38,876 nucleotides of DNA from a virus (lineage: Duplodnaviria; Heunggongvirae; Uroviricota; Caudoviricetes), in IMG/VR virus record IMGVR_UViG_2526164597_000012; one strand, given 5' to 3'. The position numbers and the translations under genes are program-made. Shown here piece by piece: positions 4,688 through 32,969 of this stretch. The notes beneath the pieces were generated by a model that did no database searches, was not told the origin of the DNA, and was given only the letters and a program-made list of their open reading frames with translations. Within the stretch, counting starts at the first letter, position 1; each line of letters starts with the position of its first letter.

Positions 4688-5262
4688 CTGCTCCCGTGGT
4701 TATAACTGCCATCATGGATGGCGGTATTGTTATAGCGAATGGCCACAGACTGATACTCCAGGCTGGCCAGATGGCAGCGGGCCGGTGCAAATGCAGCCAG
4801 CGTCTGACGCAGCATCGCGGCCTGATCGTTAGTAATGGGCTGTTTCAGAATAACGCGATAAACTGCCCAGGCGGCTGCATCTCCATGAACAAACAGTCCG
4901 TTATAGCTGCGATTGCCGTCGTAACTGAGACGACCTGTGCCTTCAATCAGATCCACTTCACCAAAGCCAAAACGGCGGATAACTTCCCGGATTGACCACG
5001 GCGTCCCTTTATACCGGTGCAGTTCGATGGCTGCTTTTATAAGCATGCGGCGAACATCGTCCGATTCCGCCAGCTCCCAGCCATCGCCAGACAGTGAGAA
5101 CTGCTCGCCCAGCCATGGCAGCGCGGAACTGTCGACGATATCGACGAGAAAGACCATCAGTACGCTCAGGTCGATGTTATCCAGCCGTCCTGCCAGTCTT
5201 CCCAGCGTCCTGAGACTGATATCACCCTCAAGCGGTGGCGGGAGTTGTAATGGCTCAGTCAT
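4684..5262 (-). CDS. Baseplate/tail protein (Mu gp48-like)
   Basis: 192 aa, position between baseplate J-like gene and tail fibre as in Mu/P2-type baseplate modules. Confidence 0.6.
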   Translation of the reverse strand: MTEPLQLPPPLEGDISLRTLGRLAGRLDNIDLSVLMVFLVDIVDSSALPWLGEQFSLSGDGWELAESDDVRRMLIKAAIELHRYKGTPWSIREVIRRFGFGEVDLIEGTGRLSYDGNRSYNGLFVHGDAAAWAVYRVILKQPITNDQAAMLRQTLAAFAPARCHLASLEYQSVAIRYNNTAIHDGSYNHGSS

Positions 5263-6358
5263 CAGACACTCCAGTCATGTTAAGAGTGATTGCCGTACAG
5301 TTTGCCCATTCGTTTTCTGCCACCACCCGCAGTGCCGGTGTCACCAGTTCAACCTGGTACACCCCGGAAACGGACAATGCACTGATAATCTGGCTGGGGA
5401 CAATATCGCGCCCCAGCGTGGCGGCACGTGATGCCACCCAGTTCTGTATGGCGCTGTTAGCGGCATCTTTTACAGACCTGGCATCCTGATCACGATAGAT
5501 CGTAATCTTGGCTTCAATGGTGTAATCCACCTTCACTGGTGTTTTAGCCCGCACTGTATCAGTGAGTGGCCTGACTTTCTCATCAGAGCAGAAACTCTCT
5601 ACCAGCGTGAGAACACCGCCGTCCGGCAGACCGGTACTGAGCAGCGGATACAGATCTACGGTCCCGGGAACCGGGGAAAGCACAGCAACATCGACAATGT
5701 TGGGATGGGCCTGCATGGCATGAAAGCGGTATGCGCCACGGCTTCCGGCATTGGTGAATGACTCCGGGGCCAGCCTGATACGCTCCCGGAGCCTGTCATC
5801 GTCTTCCTGTTCTGAACCGCCGGAACTGGCCGTCAGATTGCTCACCAGCAGGTCGACGTTATCAATCTCATCGAGTAACTGACTGACCTGCGCAGGTTGC
5901 CAGCCGTTACCAGCGGTACCGGGTTCGGTACAGGTGGACGTGACATTGACCAGCAGCAATCCGGCCTTCAGTACCACATCTGTATCGGTGGCAAAAATAA
6001 CGCTGTCGGAAGCGCTGACGCGGGTGCCTGCCGGGATCAGCACATCAATGGCCAGTGCCTCATCTACGGAGAACTGGAGCGTGGTAGTGGCAGGCTGCGC
6101 GGCAAGACGGTATACACCGACCAGTTCACCGAGGTAATCAATCATCGGCTCACGGGCAAAGGCGACCAGATTCTGCTTTGCTGCCTCCTGTACCGCAACC
6201 CTGACCAGCATTTCGCGATAGGCCCACAGATCAATCAGCAGACGTTCTGCCTGTGCCGGGTACAGCGTTTTGCCGGTATCCGCTTCATACTTCGCAATCA
6301 TTTCTGCCGTGATTTTGTCGGCATCGCGTTCAATAAAATCGGGTTCTGTCAGCGCCAT
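5255..6358 (-). CDS. Baseplate J-like protein (Mu gp47-like)
   Basis: 367 aa; size and synteny (after gpW-like, before gp48-like). Confidence 0.65.
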   Translation of the reverse strand: MALTEPDFIERDADKITAEMIAKYEADTGKTLYPAQAERLLIDLWAYREMLVRVAVQEAAKQNLVAFAREPMIDYLGELVGVYRLAAQPATTTLQFSVDEALAIDVLIPAGTRVSASDSVIFATDTDVVLKAGLLLVNVTSTCTEPGTAGNGWQPAQVSQLLDEIDNVDLLVSNLTASSGGSEQEDDDRLRERIRLAPESFTNAGSRGAYRFHAMQAHPNIVDVAVLSPVPGTVDLYPLLSTGLPDGGVLTLVESFCSDEKVRPLTDTVRAKTPVKVDYTIEAKITIYRDQDARSVKDAANSAIQNWVASRAATLGRDIVPSQIISALSVSGVYQVELVTPALRVVAENEWANCTAITLNMTGVSDD

Positions 6359-28055: not shown

Positions 28056-28820
28056 ATGAAAATGCAGACATTACCCATCGTGCCGTGGATTGGTGGCAAA
28101 CGCCGCCTTGCAAAACACATTCTGCCGCTGTTTCCGGCGCATGAATGTTATGTGGAGCCGTTTTGTGGGGCAGCAGCGCTCTATTTTCTTAAGACACCCG
28201 GCAAGATCGAAGTCATCAATGATATCAACGGTGAACTGGTGAATCTGTACCGGGTGGTAAAGCATCACCTGGAAGAATTTGTCCGCCAGTTCAAATGGGC
28301 GCTGGTCAGCCGTCAGATCTACAAATGGCTGCAGATCACCCCGGAAGAAACACTGACGGATATCCAGCGTGCGGCACGGTTCTACTACCTTCAGAAGCAG
28401 GCGTTTGGCGGCAAGGTGGCAGAGCACAGCTTCGGTACCTCCACCACATCCCCGCCACGCTTCAACCTGCTACGTATTGAAGAAGAACTGTCAGCGGCAC
28501 ACCTGCGGCTTTCCAGAACAGTCATAGAACACATGGACTGGCAACAGTGCATTGAGCGTTATGATCGTCCGCACACGCTGTTCTACTGCGACCCACCGTA
28601 CCTGGGTACGGAAGGCTATGGTGTGGATTTTCCTGAAGGGAACTACTCGCGGCTGGCAGAGCTGGCCCGGTGCATCAGAGGAAAAATGATAATTTCGGTG
28701 AACGACATCCCGCAGATGCGCGAGGTGTTCACTGGACTGAACATACAGACAGTGAATATCAACTACAGTCTGGCGGGTAAACCCACGCCGCGCCGTGAAC
28801 TGCTAATCTGCAACTTCTGA
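28056..28820 (+). CDS. DNA N6-adenine methyltransferase, Dam-like (orphan)
   Basis: 254 aa; N-terminal EPFCGAAAL (FxGxG-like AdoMet motif) and catalytic DPPY (..FYCDPPYLG..); no adjacent restriction endonuclease gene; start at ATG 28056 with AAAGG upstream. Confidence 0.8.
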   Translation: MKMQTLPIVPWIGGKRRLAKHILPLFPAHECYVEPFCGAAALYFLKTPGKIEVINDINGELVNLYRVVKHHLEEFVRQFKWALVSRQIYKWLQITPEETLTDIQRAARFYYLQKQAFGGKVAEHSFGTSTTSPPRFNLLRIEEELSAAHLRLSRTVIEHMDWQQCIERYDRPHTLFYCDPPYLGTEGYGVDFPEGNYSRLAELARCIRGKMIISVNDIPQMREVFTGLNIQTVNINYSLAGKPTPRRELLICNF

Positions 28821-28850
28821 AACAAAACCGGAAAGCACAATGCTTTCCGG
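28821..28850 (-). terminator. Rho-independent terminator for the repressor transcript (possibly bidirectional)
   Basis: Perfect 10-bp stem CCGGAAAGCA-CAA-TGCTTTCCGG followed on the minus strand by TTTTGTT. Confidence 0.7.
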
Positions 28851-28936
28851 TAAACCAAACAACTTCCACTATGTCACTGGCGATGTTTTCTGAAAGCATC
28901 CAGATCAACCACCTGTCCTTTGTGTCCGGGTCAGTA

Positions 28937-29293
28937 TCAGCCTGCGATTTTTCCTGGTTTTGGCTGAGTATAGAATCGCCCAATCTCAAGAAATGAGCGT
29001 TGTTGGTCTGGTGTCATGTCGTCAAAAGTATCTATTAGTTTTTGTTTTTCTGGGGAAATTTGATTCTGGTTTCTAGTCATACCATCTGTGCTCATTCCAG
29101 TGAGCAACCAATTTACATCAACATTAAACTCTTGATGCATCTTTAACAGAAACTCCCCTCCAGGCATCGCCTTTCCATTTTCAATCTGACTGATACCACC
29201 ATTAGAAATACCTAAACGAGCTGCAAATTCTCTCTGGTTCAACCCTGCTTTCTTCCTCACAGAAATAACGCGCTCTCCTATATCTTTGCTCAT
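28937..29293 (-). CDS. Prophage repressor, XRE-family HTH (c-like)
   Basis: 118 aa; N-terminal HTH ..KKAGLNQREFAARLGISNGGISQIENG..; divergent from the early operon with an operator palindrome between them. Confidence 0.8.
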   Translation of the reverse strand: MSKDIGERVISVRKKAGLNQREFAARLGISNGGISQIENGKAMPGGEFLLKMHQEFNVDVNWLLTGMSTDGMTRNQNQISPEKQKLIDTFDDMTPDQQRSFLEIGRFYTQPKPGKIAG

Positions 29294-29310
29294 AAAAGTG
29301 AATCTCTATC

Positions 29311-29339
29311 TTGATATGCTCATAATTATGAGCAATAAT
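29311..29339 (+). promoter_or_regulatory. Early promoter (Pe-like) with operator in the spacer
   Basis: -35 TTGATA, 17-bp spacer, -10 AATAAT; spacer is the perfect 18-bp palindrome TGCTCATAATTATGAGCA (29317..29334); a further half-site TGCTCATAA overlaps the repressor start codon (29287..29295). Confidence 0.6.
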
Positions 29340-29386
29340 CTAACACATATAAGGCAAACATCATTGCATCAACAAAGGAGACAACG

Positions 29387-29575
29387 ATGACTGCAGAACA
29401 AGTCAAAGCTCTCTTCCGCCAGCGCGGGATCACTTTCACCCGCTGGGCAGAAGAAAACGGCTACAACCGCAATGAGGTATACCGCGTTCTCAACGGGCAG
29501 ACCAAAGCCCGTTACGGTAAATCCCATGAAATCGCCGTGAAGTTGGGACTGAAATCAACAGCTCAGGCGGCCTAA
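29387..29575 (+). CDS. Ner/Cro-like small DNA-binding regulator
   Basis: 62 aa, first gene of early operon opposite the repressor; RBS AAAGGAG; residue pattern reminiscent of Ner-type regulators. Confidence 0.6.
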   Translation: MTAEQVKALFRQRGITFTRWAEENGYNRNEVYRVLNGQTKARYGKSHEIAVKLGLKSTAQAA

Positions 29576-29621
29576 ATATTTTGAGTCTTTGTAAAAGGTT
29601 ATCACATATCGCAAAAGAGGT

Positions 29622-29936
29622 ATGCAGATGAGTAAGACGAATGTTTCAAGCTCCGGCAGTCGCATCCTCCGGGTACTCAAAGCGCTGCGCGGTCATGCCC
29701 TGAACGGTATTTCTAACGGTGAACTGGCGACAGCACTGCACGAGTCACCGGCAAACATCAACCGGGCACTCAACACCCTCATTGAAGAAGGGCTGGCTCT
29801 GAAACTGGAGAACGGACGTTTTGCACCGGGCATCCAGTTACTGCAGATCGCCATGGCCCACAGTAACGAGATGGCACGTGCACAGGATCGTATTAACGAA
29901 ATTAACCAACGTGTCATTTCAGGTAGTCGTTTGTAA
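29622..29936 (+). CDS. Winged-helix DNA-binding protein
   Basis: 104 aa; ..ISNGELATALHESPANINRALNTLIEEGL.. HTH-like; true start may be the second ATG at 29628. Confidence 0.5.
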   Translation: MQMSKTNVSSSGSRILRVLKALRGHALNGISNGELATALHESPANINRALNTLIEEGLALKLENGRFAPGIQLLQIAMAHSNEMARAQDRINEINQRVISGSRL

Positions 29937-29946
29937 GGAGTAATCA

Positions 29947-30867
29947 ATGGGACGTACCAAATCACCGATTAACACTGAACTGAACGCCGATGTACCGCTG
30001 TCGGATGATCTCAACGTCAGCCTGAATGCCATGACACAGCATCGCATGGAGATCATGCAGCAGTTTGGTGATGGACTGCCTTATGAACGTGAACGCATCG
30101 TTCACGAAGCACGTTTTTATATGGCGCAGAGTGCTGAATCTATGTTGGAAGCGGGTAAGCGGCTGATCATCTTAAAAGAAAATGAACCGCATGGTGATTT
30201 CACAAATATTCTGGAAAACGACCTCGGATTAGCACCACAGGTAGCTCGTCGCATGATGCAGGCCAGCGTGAAATTTCTCGGCAATGGAGATGAACAGCCA
30301 AAACGCTCAGCGCTGAGCGTTTTGGGAAAAACCAAGTTATATGAACTGATGGTTCTGGATGACGAAGAACTCGACGCATTAGCTGATGGTGGAACCGTCG
30401 CCGGTGCAACGCTTGATGATATTGATCGCATGACCAGCCGCGAACTGAAGGCCGCCCTGCGTGAAGCGCGCGAAACCAACGCAGCTCAGCAACAGGTGCT
30501 TGCCGGAAAGGACGAAAAAATCAACGAACTGGCCACAAAACTGGAGAAGAAATCGCGCCTGCAACCTCCGCCGCCAGACGAAGAACTGAAAAAATTGCGG
30601 GCGGAAGTGACGGCATTAGCGGTTGAGGCCGAATCGGCTATCGCCGTCCGGCTGTCCAGTGTTTTTGAGACCCTGTGTGAATACTGCACCAAAAACATGA
30701 TCGATACCCCCAGAGATTTCATGGCCGGTCTGGTCTGCCAGATTGAACGCAGTGTTCATGCATTACGTGAGACGTTTGACCTTGAGGCCGCTCCATCGGG
30801 TAACGATGCCCCCGCCTGGCTGACCGAACCGGAACCTGAAATCAACCGACCGGAGGATATGCAGTAA
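29947..30867 (+). CDS. Conserved early-region hypothetical protein (coiled-coil)
   Basis: 306 aa; coiled-coil/charged C-terminal half; no confident family. Confidence 0.45.
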   Translation: MGRTKSPINTELNADVPLSDDLNVSLNAMTQHRMEIMQQFGDGLPYERERIVHEARFYMAQSAESMLEAGKRLIILKENEPHGDFTNILENDLGLAPQVARRMMQASVKFLGNGDEQPKRSALSVLGKTKLYELMVLDDEELDALADGGTVAGATLDDIDRMTSRELKAALREARETNAAQQQVLAGKDEKINELATKLEKKSRLQPPPPDEELKKLRAEVTALAVEAESAIAVRLSSVFETLCEYCTKNMIDTPRDFMAGLVCQIERSVHALRETFDLEAAPSGNDAPAWLTEPEPEINRPEDMQ

Positions 30868-31184
30868 TGAATACGAATAACACACAAAATACCCTGATGG
30901 ACAGCCCGGAGGCACTGGGGCACGCACTGTGTAATCTGCTGCCGGAGATGGTGCAGGGTTTCCGCGTGGTGACCCCTTCCGGTGAAATCTGCGTACCCGC
31001 ACAGGAGACGCACCCGTTTGTACTGACGATGGAGGTGATGCTGATGCAGCAGATAAGACGTCTGCAGAATCAGTCAGCATTACGCCCGGTAGTTGCACCG
31101 CAACCGGTAAATACCGTGGTGAAAACCTGCGATGGCGAAACACTGTGCGACCTCGCCAGAAAAATTGCCGCCAGAATCGGATAA
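30867..31184 (+). CDS. Hypothetical protein
   Basis: 105 aa, translationally coupled to the upstream gene (ATGA overlap). Confidence 0.4.
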   Translation: MNTNNTQNTLMDSPEALGHALCNLLPEMVQGFRVVTPSGEICVPAQETHPFVLTMEVMLMQQIRRLQNQSALRPVVAPQPVNTVVKTCDGETLCDLARKIAARIG

Positions 31185-31199
31185 CAGGGAAGACAAGCT

Positions 31200-32969
31200 A
31201 TGACCCCGGCACTGACTGAAAAACTGGTTGAAACAGCCCGCGCGGCACGTGACGCGGGGCATGGTAAACGCGGTGCAATATACGACGCTGCCTGTGCTGA
31301 ACTTGGCATGTCCCGCGCCACTCTGCTGCGCAGGCTGAAGGAGGTATCTGTGACTGATAAACGCAAAAAACGCGCCGATGCCGGGCGCAGCGCCCTGACC
31401 CGCGACGAAGCCGCGCTGATATCTGCCACACTGCGTGAGGCCACCCGCAAGAACGGTAAGCGTCTCTATTCCATCGCAGATGCAGTGGAAACCCTGCGGG
31501 CTAACGGCTTTATCACCGCAGGCAGAACAGATGAAACCACCGGTGAGTTTTTCCCGTTGTCTGAAGATGCCATCAGCCGTGCTCTGCGTAACTATGGCCT
31601 GCACCCGGAACAACTGGATGCCCCTGCACCACATACCGAAGTGGCCAGTCTGCATCCCAATCATGTCTGGCAGATTGACGCCTCACTCTGCACGCTTTAC
31701 TACCTGAGCAATGGACATAAAGGGCTGCAGGTGATGGACAGCGCGAAGTTCTACAAGAACAAGCCCGCTAACCTTGCCCGTATCGCCAGTGACCGCGTGT
31801 GGAGTTACGAGATTACCGACCATGCCAGCGGCTGGATTTACGTTGAGTATGTGACGGGCGCGGAATCAGGTGAGAACCTGTGTTCTGTGCTTATCAACGC
31901 CATGCAGGAGCGTGGCGGCGCAGACGTGCTGCACGGCGTGCCGAAAATACTCTATCTCGACCCCGGCTCGGCAAACACCGCGGGTATGACGAAAAACATG
32001 TGCCGCTCACTGGGCATCGACCTGATAGCGCACAAGCCGCATAACGCCCGCGCCACCGGACAGGTGGAAAAGGCGCGTGACATTATCGAACGCAAGCTGG
32101 AGCCGGGTCTGAAGTTCCGGCCGGTTCACAGTCTGGAAGAACTCAACGCGCTGGCCGCGAAATGGCGCAGCCACTTTAACGCCACGGCTGTTCACAGCCG
32201 CCACGGTAAAACCCGCACGGATATCTGGCTGAAGATTACTGCTGAGCAGCTGAAAAAAGCGCCTTCCGTTAAGGTATGTCGTGAACTGGCTGTGGCGGCA
32301 CCAGAACTCCGCAAAGTCACGCCAAAACTTCGTGTCTCGTTCCGGGGCACTGAATTTGACGTATCAACGGTACCGGGCGTACTGGTTGGTGAAAAACTGA
32401 TGATTACCCGTAACCCATGGCGCAGCGATGTGGCACAGGTGGTTCTGACTGGTGAGGACGGCCACGAGACGTTCTTCCTGGTCGAAGAGGTCAGAAAGAA
32501 CGAGTTTGGCTTTGCTGAAGGCGCGGCGGTATTTGGCGAAAGTTACAAAGCCCTGCCGGAAACCCCGGCACAGATGGCGGCAAAAGAAACCGAAGCGCTG
32601 GTTACCGGTACAGACAACGCCGCAGATGCAGCCGCCGCACGCAAGGCGAAGGCGCTGCCGTTCGGCGGGCGGCTTGACCCGTATAAACATATCGACGACA
32701 CCACACTTCCGGCCTATATGCCGAAGCGTGGTCAGGCCTCTGACGTACGCGGGCCGCGCACTGAACAACGTCCCATGACTCATGTGGAGGCCGCGAAAGC
32801 CCTGCGCGATAAGTTCAGCACCGACGGCCTTACCTGGACGCCGGAACATTACCGCCAGTTAACGGCACAGTACCCGGACGGCGTACCGGAAGCCGCACTG
32901 GATGAAGTCATGGCCACGCTGACCACACCGGCCCGCAGCAGTGTTATCAGCATTGTTAACGGCAACTGA
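31200..32969 (+). CDS. DDE transposase (transposition protein A-like; resembles retroviral-integrase-fold rve/Tn552-TnsB-type more than MuA)
   Basis: 589 aa; N-terminal HTH-like region; ..HVWQIDAS.. and ..LYLDPGSANT.. resemble the first two acidic-residue motifs of DDE integrase-fold transposases; followed by an ATPase gene. Confidence 0.75.
   Translation: MTPALTEKLVETARAARDAGHGKRGAIYDAACAELGMSRATLLRRLKEVSVTDKRKKRADAGRSALTRDEAALISATLREATRKNGKRLYSIADAVETLRANGFITAGRTDETTGEFFPLSEDAISRALRNYGLHPEQLDAPAPHTEVASLHPNHVWQIDASLCTLYYLSNGHKGLQVMDSAKFYKNKPANLARIASDRVWSYEITDHASGWIYVEYVTGAESGENLCSVLINAMQERGGADVLHGVPKILYLDPGSANTAGMTKNMCRSLGIDLIAHKPHNARATGQVEKARDIIERKLEPGLKFRPVHSLEELNALAAKWRSHFNATAVHSRHGKTRTDIWLKITAEQLKKAPSVKVCRELAVAAPELRKVTPKLRVSFRGTEFDVSTVPGVLVGEKLMITRNPWRSDVAQVVLTGEDGHETFFLVEEVRKNEFGFAEGAAVFGESYKALPETPAQMAAKETEALVTGTDNAADAAAARKAKALPFGGRLDPYKHIDDTTLPAYMPKRGQASDVRGPRTEQRPMTHVEAAKALRDKFSTDGLTWTPEHYRQLTAQYPDGVPEAALDEVMATLTTPARSSVISIVNGN

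Follow-up and report, generated by a model that had tools for sequence, protein, structure and literature searches.

How does a transposable prophage of Escherichia coli hold its early genes silent, and which protein reads the palindrome that lies in the promoter of those genes? The question is raised by a stretch of tailed-phage DNA of 38,876 nucleotides (IMG/VR record IMGVR_UViG_2526164597_000012; the whole stretch is called the window here), in which a gene for a 118-amino-acid (aa) protein is divergent from a ner-like gene and the transposase operon. This region matches Escherichia phage PhiKM (PQ738613.1; locus L001 of the comparison) at 100% identity; that phage comes from a uropathogenic strain and is classified as Bcepmuvirus. 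The window is accordingly an E. coli prophage of the transposable, BcepMu-like kind. At >=99% identity the region is present in 390 of 5,426 complete E. coli genomes (~7%), including O25b:H4-ST131 and other human clinical isolates. The sequence evidence presented here makes it very probable that the lysogeny repressor of this element uses the palindrome as its main operator (O1).

The palindrome in the early promoter

Repressors of the 434/P22 type bind as dimers to a dyad of 14-18 bp that overlaps the lytic promoter, and their sites are graded, one of them touching the repressor's own expression. The same overlap with the lytic promoter is seen in the window, where an 18-bp dyad forms the spacer of the early promoter, Pe (Table 1). 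The preliminary description, made from the letters of the window, had placed a perfect 18-bp palindrome exactly between a TTGATA and an AATAAT hexamer, and the sequence at 29311-29339 reads just so. The A at 29334 belongs to both the palindrome and the -10 hexamer, giving a spacer of 17 nucleotides (nt) that is nearly all dyad. Consensus scans of 28700-29700 and 29300-31300 return Pe as the sole sigma-70-like match, and transcription would start near 29345-29347. The -35 hexamer stands at -76 from the ner ATG, an offset that is constant in enterobacterial relatives. As had also been proposed, the promoter lies upstream of the ner-like gene, which opens an early operon of gp16-family ner-like, IclR-like helix-turn-helix (HTH), DUF3102 and rve transposase genes, followed by an "Eha protein" gene and gam; the rve domain was found in the 589-aa transposase.

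Taken alone, the palindrome is only mildly improbable, since a perfect 9+9 palindrome arises somewhere in the window in 11% of dinucleotide shuffles. Promoter spacers are AT-rich, and the dyad might be a chance feature of such a spacer with no regulatory role. The case must therefore rest on position, on additional sites and on comparison. Exact copies of the 9-mer TGCTCATAA number three in the 38.9 kb and all lie inside one 48-bp stretch, two of them being the arms of the dyad. The 18-mer occurs once in the window even when three mismatches are allowed (0.02 expected), and the family consensus, with at most one mismatch, matches only O1 and a site within the repressor gene, O3 (0.01 expected). 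The exact placement of the palindrome, together with two further consensus sites within 230 bp (against 0.01 expected), makes chance a most improbable explanation, as do the family-wide enrichment of spacer dyads, the covariation with the repressor domain and the constrained synonymous codons in O2 and O3 that are described below.

A half-site overlapping the start codon of the repressor had been noted as well. The 9-mer is indeed exact (local p ~0.002) and conserved, and it covers the start codon and the Ser2 codon; however, it is not a mere half but the strong half of a weak 18-bp site, O2. As for further half-sites in the element, O3 came to light, whereas one-mismatch 9-mers elsewhere in the window number 11 against 7.7 expected, about what chance gives, and three-mismatch 18-mers outside the O1-O3 region look random. 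The arrangement is one full site and one weak site within the 93-bp intergenic region and start codon, and a third, intragenic site 228 bp off.

Table 1 Positions of the promoter, the sites and the genes in the window.
Feature	Position	Strand	Remarks
Pe, -35 hexamer TTGATA	29311-29316	+	10/12 matches, 17-nt spacer
O1, TGCTCATAATTATGAGCA	29317-29334		Perfect 18-bp dyad; family consensus TGCTCAT-N4-ATGAGCA; fills the Pe spacer
Pe, -10 hexamer AATAAT	29334-29339	+	xATAAT kept in relatives
O2, TGCTCATAAAAGTGAATC	29287-29304		Weak 18-bp site, 11/14 of consensus; centre 30 bp from O1 centre
Exact half-site of O2, TGCTCATAA	29287-29295		Spans the repressor start codon (CAT on + strand, 29291-29293)
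O3, TGCTCATTCCAGTGAGCA	29089-29106		13/14 of consensus; within the repressor gene, codons L63-T69
Leader motif, CAAACATCATTGCATCA	29355-29371	+	Between Pe -10 and the ner-like ribosome-binding site
Candidate extended -10, TG-n-TAGATT	29337-29345	-	Possible proximal repressor promoter; found by eye; kept in 8 lineages
Repressor gene	28937-29293	-	118 aa; HTH_3 protein
ner-like gene	29387-29575	+	62 aa; BcepMu gp16 family; first gene transcribed from Pe
IclR-like HTH gene	29622-29936		Early operon
DUF3102 gene	29947-30867		Early operon
Inverted repeat, CGTGAACGcatCGTTCACG	30088-30106		8-bp arms, 3-nt loop
Palindrome, CCAAAACGCTCAGCGCTGAGCGTTTTGG	30298-30325		Perfect, 28 bp
Hairpin, ACCGGAAAGCAcaaTGCTTTCCGGT	28827-28851		11-bp stem; T-run on minus strand

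Assignment of the 118-aa protein as a 434/P22-type HTH_3 repressor is supported by both sequence and predicted structure. Pfam assigns only HTH_3 (E = 4.6e-15) and HTH_19 to it, with no Peptidase S24 (LexA-like) match in the protein, and the DNA-binding domain matches 434 cI (3.4e-8) and P22 C2 (1.3e-5) by sequence. The AlphaFold (AF2) model, with a mean predicted local distance difference test score (pLDDT) of 81, has five helices within residues 4-64, a low-confidence linker and helices at 80-108, the latter forming a C-terminal hairpin that is predicted helical at pLDDT ~80. Over 65 columns, the model fits operator-bound P22 c2 at 1.2 A; the recognition helix of the protein reads GISNGGISQIE. 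Over its full length the protein is a homologue (31% identity, E = 1e-10, tblastn) of the repressors of the B3-like Pseudomonas phages Fc02, H71 and JD18.

If the dyad is bound by this repressor, its sequence is expected to follow the repressor's DNA-binding domain. Relatives were collected by a species scan with one genome per species and the ner-like protein as query, which yielded 64 loci in Enterobacterales, Pseudomonas, Pasteurellaceae, Burkholderiales and others. In most of these, a dyad forms the spacer of the best promoter upstream of ner: at least 7/9 dyad pairs are present in the spacers of 56% of unique promoter-like matches upstream of ner, compared with 3% of controls, which were promoter-like matches in the same DNA (Mann-Whitney p = 6e-15). 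The promoter frame persists across ~70 related loci, but the spacer palindrome differs with the repressor DNA-binding domain. Six E. coli variants share the frame (-35 at -76 from the ner ATG), the leader and the ner-like protein, and carry other palindromes, such as TATCCCAttatTGGGATA and ATGAGAACaataGTTCTCAT, or, in some, a repeated GTGAG-N5-CTGCAC in place of the palindrome. Each of these sequences goes with its own N-terminal domain in the repressor. At the repressor C-terminus, the window agrees with the L002 and L003/L004 variants; L005-L007 have another.

The same comparison bears on whether the palindrome is bound instead by the ner-like (gp16-family) protein, either alone or shared with the repressor in the manner of lambda CI and Cro. 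In lambdoid phages, proteins of the Cro type do bind the repressor's operators; the ner-like gene comes first after the promoter, and the ner-like protein has weak HTH matches. Against this, the ner-like protein of E. coli SaT040 is 100% identical to that of the window, yet its repressor N-terminal domain differs and its palindrome is unrelated; the palindrome of PK8275, where the ner-like protein is 98% identical, is unrelated too. Conversely, eight homologues of the repressor, 51-78% identical and all with the helix GISNGGISQIE, carry TGCTCAT-N4-ATGAGCA as spacer sequence and deviate from it by no more than one half-site mismatch; among them are L075, which has a different leader, and L077, which lies in a non-BcepMu phage where an 80-aa gene of no recorded family replaces the 62-aa ner-like gene. 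What does accompany ner is a separate motif in the leader (see below). With one and the same ner-like protein found beside unrelated palindromes, sharing of O1 by this protein is excluded; it must act elsewhere, and we regard its binding to the palindrome as very improbable. In that respect, judged from these comparisons, the switch is not lambda-like.

The dependence on the repressor can also be expressed quantitatively. For locus pairs with ner identity >=85%, operator identity is 0.40 when the repressor HTH domains are <30% identical, and 0.81 when they are >=60% identical. Over all pairs, the Mantel correlation between operator and repressor similarity reaches significance but is weak (rho = 0.25), most pairs being unrelated, and the stratified comparison is the informative one. 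These results support the conclusion that, at the level of sequence, the palindrome tracks the repressor DNA-binding domain, and not the ner-like gene or the phage backbone.

Two more DNA-binding proteins are encoded just downstream, and O1 could in principle serve one of them, for example the IclR-like winged-helix protein, with the 118-aa protein doing something else. However, three E. coli relatives with differing palindromes encode one and the same IclR-like protein (WP_000047758.1), which excludes it as the O1 binder, and the 18-bp dyad fits a dimer of the 434/P22 type. Moreover, the homologous repressor gene of Fc02 is genetically proven to maintain lysogeny: a temperature-sensitive mutation of its repressor (RepC), G64E, induces the prophage, and the promoter upstream of ner (pE) fires on repressor inactivation, within 10 min as seen by strand-specific RNA-seq (PMC9936078). 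A different regulator at O1 is thus highly unlikely. The proposal in the preliminary description that the palindrome is the operator of the repressor is supported as far as sequence reaches, by the HTH_3 assignment and by covariation with the DNA-binding domain.

Sites, positions, conservation and covariation are what the analysis covers; from these we infer binding, the dimer or tetramer state, looping, the direction of autoregulation and transcription starts. The repressor would bind O1 as a dimer, placing one GISNGGISQIE helix on each TGCTCAT half-site. A dimer so placed would cover the whole 17-18 bp between the hexamers, abut both of them and deny RNA polymerase access to Pe. The early operon as a whole, ner-like and transposase genes included, would then stay silent.

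In a variant repressor (P0018, in L079/L080; also L015), HTH_3 is replaced by an unrelated N-terminal domain without a Pfam match, although one source names the protein AlpA family. Behind this domain, the same C-terminal module is retained (85% identity over the matched, C-terminal half of the query), which makes that module a shared cassette, and the spacer palindrome paired with it is TGTCTAAATTTTTAGACA. A Mor-family gene adjoins the repressor gene in L079, L082 and L084, and in L079 it lies between the repressor and ner.

Auxiliary sites and expression of the repressor

O2 and O3 overlap coding sequence, and their conservation could have causes other than repressor binding. The strong half of O2 is the start codon and Ser2 codon, and O3 falls in a conserved WLLTG motif, so that O1 might be the repressor's operator while O2 and O3 reflect coding or translation constraint, with neither autoregulation nor looping. 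Several observations argue against this. In the repressor sense, O2 reads ATTCAY-TTTW-ATGAGCA and is kept in 8/8 BcepMu-like lineages, its non-coding half included, and a weaker form is present in the non-BcepMu homologue L077. O3 is kept as TGCTCA-N6-TGAGCA in the eight BcepMu-like lineages, with the third positions of its two central codons taking all four bases, whereas in a homologue from another phage type the same LLTG is written in other codons and the O3 site is missing. Codons 1-68 were compared across eight lineages, in which 39 columns have an identical degenerate amino acid. The codon varies in 36/39 of these columns, and the three invariant ones are Ser2 AGC in O2 and Leu64 CTC and Ser68 AGC in O3; the chance that all three would hit operator-specified columns is ~4e-4. 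Amino-acid constraint leaves these invariant synonymous codons unexplained. Finally, O2-like sites recur at -29 to -33 (29-33 bp from O1) in other, unrelated immunity types. A lack of function in O2 and O3 is therefore considered unlikely, although it deserves to be kept in mind.

Several points nevertheless weigh against the proposed operator set and its auxiliary sites in particular. The whole operator case is built on sequence. Constraint on translation initiation could account for the invariant Ser2 codon, distal sites in the repressor gene are found in few other immunity types, and an O3-like site is absent from most. Centre to centre, O3 is 228 bp from O1, a non-integral number of helical turns, and 198 bp (~19 turns) from O2, a spacing set by the coding sequence. 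Helical phasing consequently gives looping no support, and it was dropped as uninformative evidence. On the minus strand of 28700-31300, no sigma-70 promoter for the repressor was found at >=9/12, and with no convincing repressor promoter the autoregulation step is left without a defined target. If the repressor gene is read from a distal promoter, as in Fc02, then O1 and O2 could be roadblocks, not promoter occluders.

A proximal promoter for the repressor may exist in the form of an extended -10 sequence, TG-n-TAGATT, from which transcription would start inside O1. Confidence in this candidate is low, and its conservation is confounded because it overlaps the Pe -10. The overlapping arrangement of TG-n-TAGATT and Pe resembles that of pC2 and pE in Fc02, whose lysogens transcribe the repressor mainly from a distal promoter (PMC9936078). 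A counterpart of that distal promoter, pC1, and of the overlapping genes was not found here in a promoter scan of 29300-31300. Self-activation from O1 in the style of lambda was set aside as unlikely, since a promoter activated there would start within the gene.

As we see it, cooperative binding or looping, mediated by the C-terminal domains, most likely lets O2 and O3 raise the occupancy of O1. When repressor is abundant, the two sites would also impede transcription of the repressor's own gene, a negative autoregulation that we infer.

The leader motif, the DUF3102 gene and flanking features

The 62-aa protein is called ner-like mainly by its position. It matches TIGR04111 (BcepMu_gp16) at 97.4 bits, above the cut-off of 34, with a weak match to Pfam HTH_35 (PF13693), and its open reading frame is preceded by an AAGGAG ribosome-binding site. 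Between Pe and this gene, the leader motif CAAACATCATTGCATCA accompanies the ner-like gene across immunity types and genera, in Enterobacterales and Photorhabdus, with related forms in Pseudomonas and Gallionellaceae loci. Given this linkage, CAAACATCATTGCATCA is the obvious candidate for the binding site of the ner-like protein, which would act away from O1-O3 and probably on this conserved leader just downstream of Pe.

A leader hairpin formed by CAUCAUUG and CAACGAUG, sequestering the ner start codon, was also entertained and rejected: relatives alter one side without compensation. Rfam gave no match anywhere in the window. In Pasteurellaceae loci L050, L056, L058 and L060-L062, a second conserved palindrome, ATTGATTAAAgaTTTAATCAAT, lies downstream of the -10, 42-67 bp upstream of the start of the tblastn match and ~20-45 bp upstream of the actual ner ATG. 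It is common to different immunity types and is probably the counterpart of the ner-linked leader motif of enterobacteria.

A further palindrome, perfect over 28 bp (CCAAAACGCTCAGCGCTGAGCGTTTTGG), lies within the DUF3102 coding sequence. Palindromes of 24-30 bp stand at the same place in 37 related loci, in 27 distinct sequences; the BcepMu counterpart is at 2036-2065 of L081, and the position is conserved from BcepMu to E. coli. CAAA[AT]G at the outside and RRCGYY at the centre are conserved. Substitutions in the inner arms are strictly compensated by their Watson-Crick partners, G:T pairs being almost absent, despite the altered peptide. Residues 84-137 of the protein, flanking the palindrome, are its only hypervariable part and look like an HTH. 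From genus to genus, the arms vary in step with a putative recognition helix encoded ~15-25 codons upstream of the palindrome, a covariation that is confounded by linkage. We hypothesize that DUF3102 (BcepMu gp10) binds a site within its own gene. From its sequence pattern, the palindrome looks like a second, independent specificity module, which under this hypothesis would reassort separately from immunity, and by itself it is more unusual than the O1 operator. No literature on DUF3102 function was found. A second inverted repeat, CGTGAACGcatCGTTCACG, is present in the same gene ~200 bp upstream of the 28-bp palindrome.

On the other side of the immunity region, a Dam-like methylase gene has its stop at 28820 and the repressor gene at 28937, and the hairpin ACCGGAAAGCAcaaTGCTTTCCGGT sits between the two stops. 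This hairpin probably serves as terminator of the repressor gene, and its A/T-flanked symmetry may allow bidirectional action. In the deposited PhiKM record (PQ738613.1, locus 4818-5333), the 118-aa repressor gene is unannotated, an opposite-strand 41-aa open reading frame is annotated within it, and the ner-like gene is labelled a hypothetical protein.

Comparison with known switches

The system belongs to the BcepMu/B3 immunity module. As in the immunity regions of B3-like and BcepMu-like phages (Fc02, BcepMu gp17/gp16), the repressor gene and a gp16-family ner-like gene are divergent and ~90-130 bp apart, and the early operon includes an rve transposase. Fc02 has a dyad in the pE spacer and an extra half-site beside the repressor start, the same layout as here, and BcepMu has an imperfect GGTA...TACC dyad in that layout. 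Both differ from the window in operator sequence and recognition helix, and the near-perfect intragenic third site is, unlike in Fc02 and BcepMu, a feature of this E. coli immunity type. The paper on Fc02 defines no operator (PMC9936078). The literature searched on BcepMu, KS10, SuMu, D3112-like and B3-like phages likewise defines none, a search whose scope excluded the original BcepMu and B3 genome papers.

With 434 cI and P22 c2, the repressor shares the five-helix HTH fold and the sequence family. However, 434, P22 and lambda repressors have a LexA-like S24 autocleavage domain, whereas the 118-aa protein has a C-terminal helical hairpin in its place, and Cro shares the repressor's operators, whereas the ner-like protein does not. 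Systems of the lambda type have three adjacent operators between divergent PR and PRM; here there is a spacer site, a site 30 bp off and an intragenic site 228 bp off.

The genetic logic and gene order are those of Mu, with the repressor divergent from ner and followed by transposase genes. In Mu, Ner works at a site of its own, apart from the repressor's specificity, and the action of the ner-like protein at a separate site would parallel Mu Ner rather than lambda Cro. The Mu repressor recognises DNA through a winged-helix domain of the type shared with the MuA N-terminus, and IHF assists its binding to O1-O3, in contrast to HTH_3 on a simple dyad here; given this different fold, the repressor is not of the Mu type. 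The early region of Mu is at the left end of the element, and here it is internal. Thus, on the sequence evidence, the system appears to be a 434/P22-type repressor-operator pair set in a Mu-like genetic context.

In the lac and gal systems, an intragenic secondary site some hundred bp off (lac O2 in lacZ, gal OI in galE) leads to looping and tighter repression. O1 and O3 similarly combine a strong promoter-proximal operator with a good intragenic secondary site, although the latter is in the repressor's own gene and looping is conjectural. The role proposed for O2 and O3 resembles both the pairwise cooperativity of lambdoid repressors and the lac O2 auxiliary operator. SinR of Bacillus subtilis combines HTH_3 with a C-terminal helical module for oligomerisation and antagonist binding, a two-domain plan that the repressor may resemble. 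SinR is matched over the full length by sequence (E = 3e-4) and also by fold search, but the C-terminal similarity is weak and the whole-chain root-mean-square deviation is 10.5 A; no SinI-like antagonist was identified in the window.

The switch is well built but conventional, and its design principle is classical: a spacer-filling operator, graded auxiliary sites and negative autoregulation are textbook features that leave the understanding of phage switches unchanged. For the BcepMu/B3 immunity module, the literature searched holds no operator definition. The proposed operator set offers a testable map of how the element stays silent and might be induced.

At least five immunity types are found within E. 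coli on otherwise similar backbones, and some E. coli genomes hold two or three copies or variants of the immunity region. Co-resident heteroimmune prophages with a common ner-like protein therefore do occur. One speculative reading, which we hold to be possible though rather doubtful, is that BcepMu/B3-like phages share a fixed switch scaffold, consisting of the -35/-10 frame, the ner-like protein with its leader and the repressor C-terminal module, into which interchangeable DNA-binding domains and their matching palindromes are swapped, and that this type also loops to an intragenic site. Since heteroimmune prophages share the ner-like protein and the repressor C-terminal domain, cross-talk between them would be possible. 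If the scaffold is indeed shared, co-resident prophages could cross-talk via mixed oligomers, a common antirepressor or trans-acting Ner, and the induction of one prophage could destabilise another. The family pattern of one promoter frame with about ten or more repressor/palindrome pairs is also a source of orthogonal repressor-operator parts.

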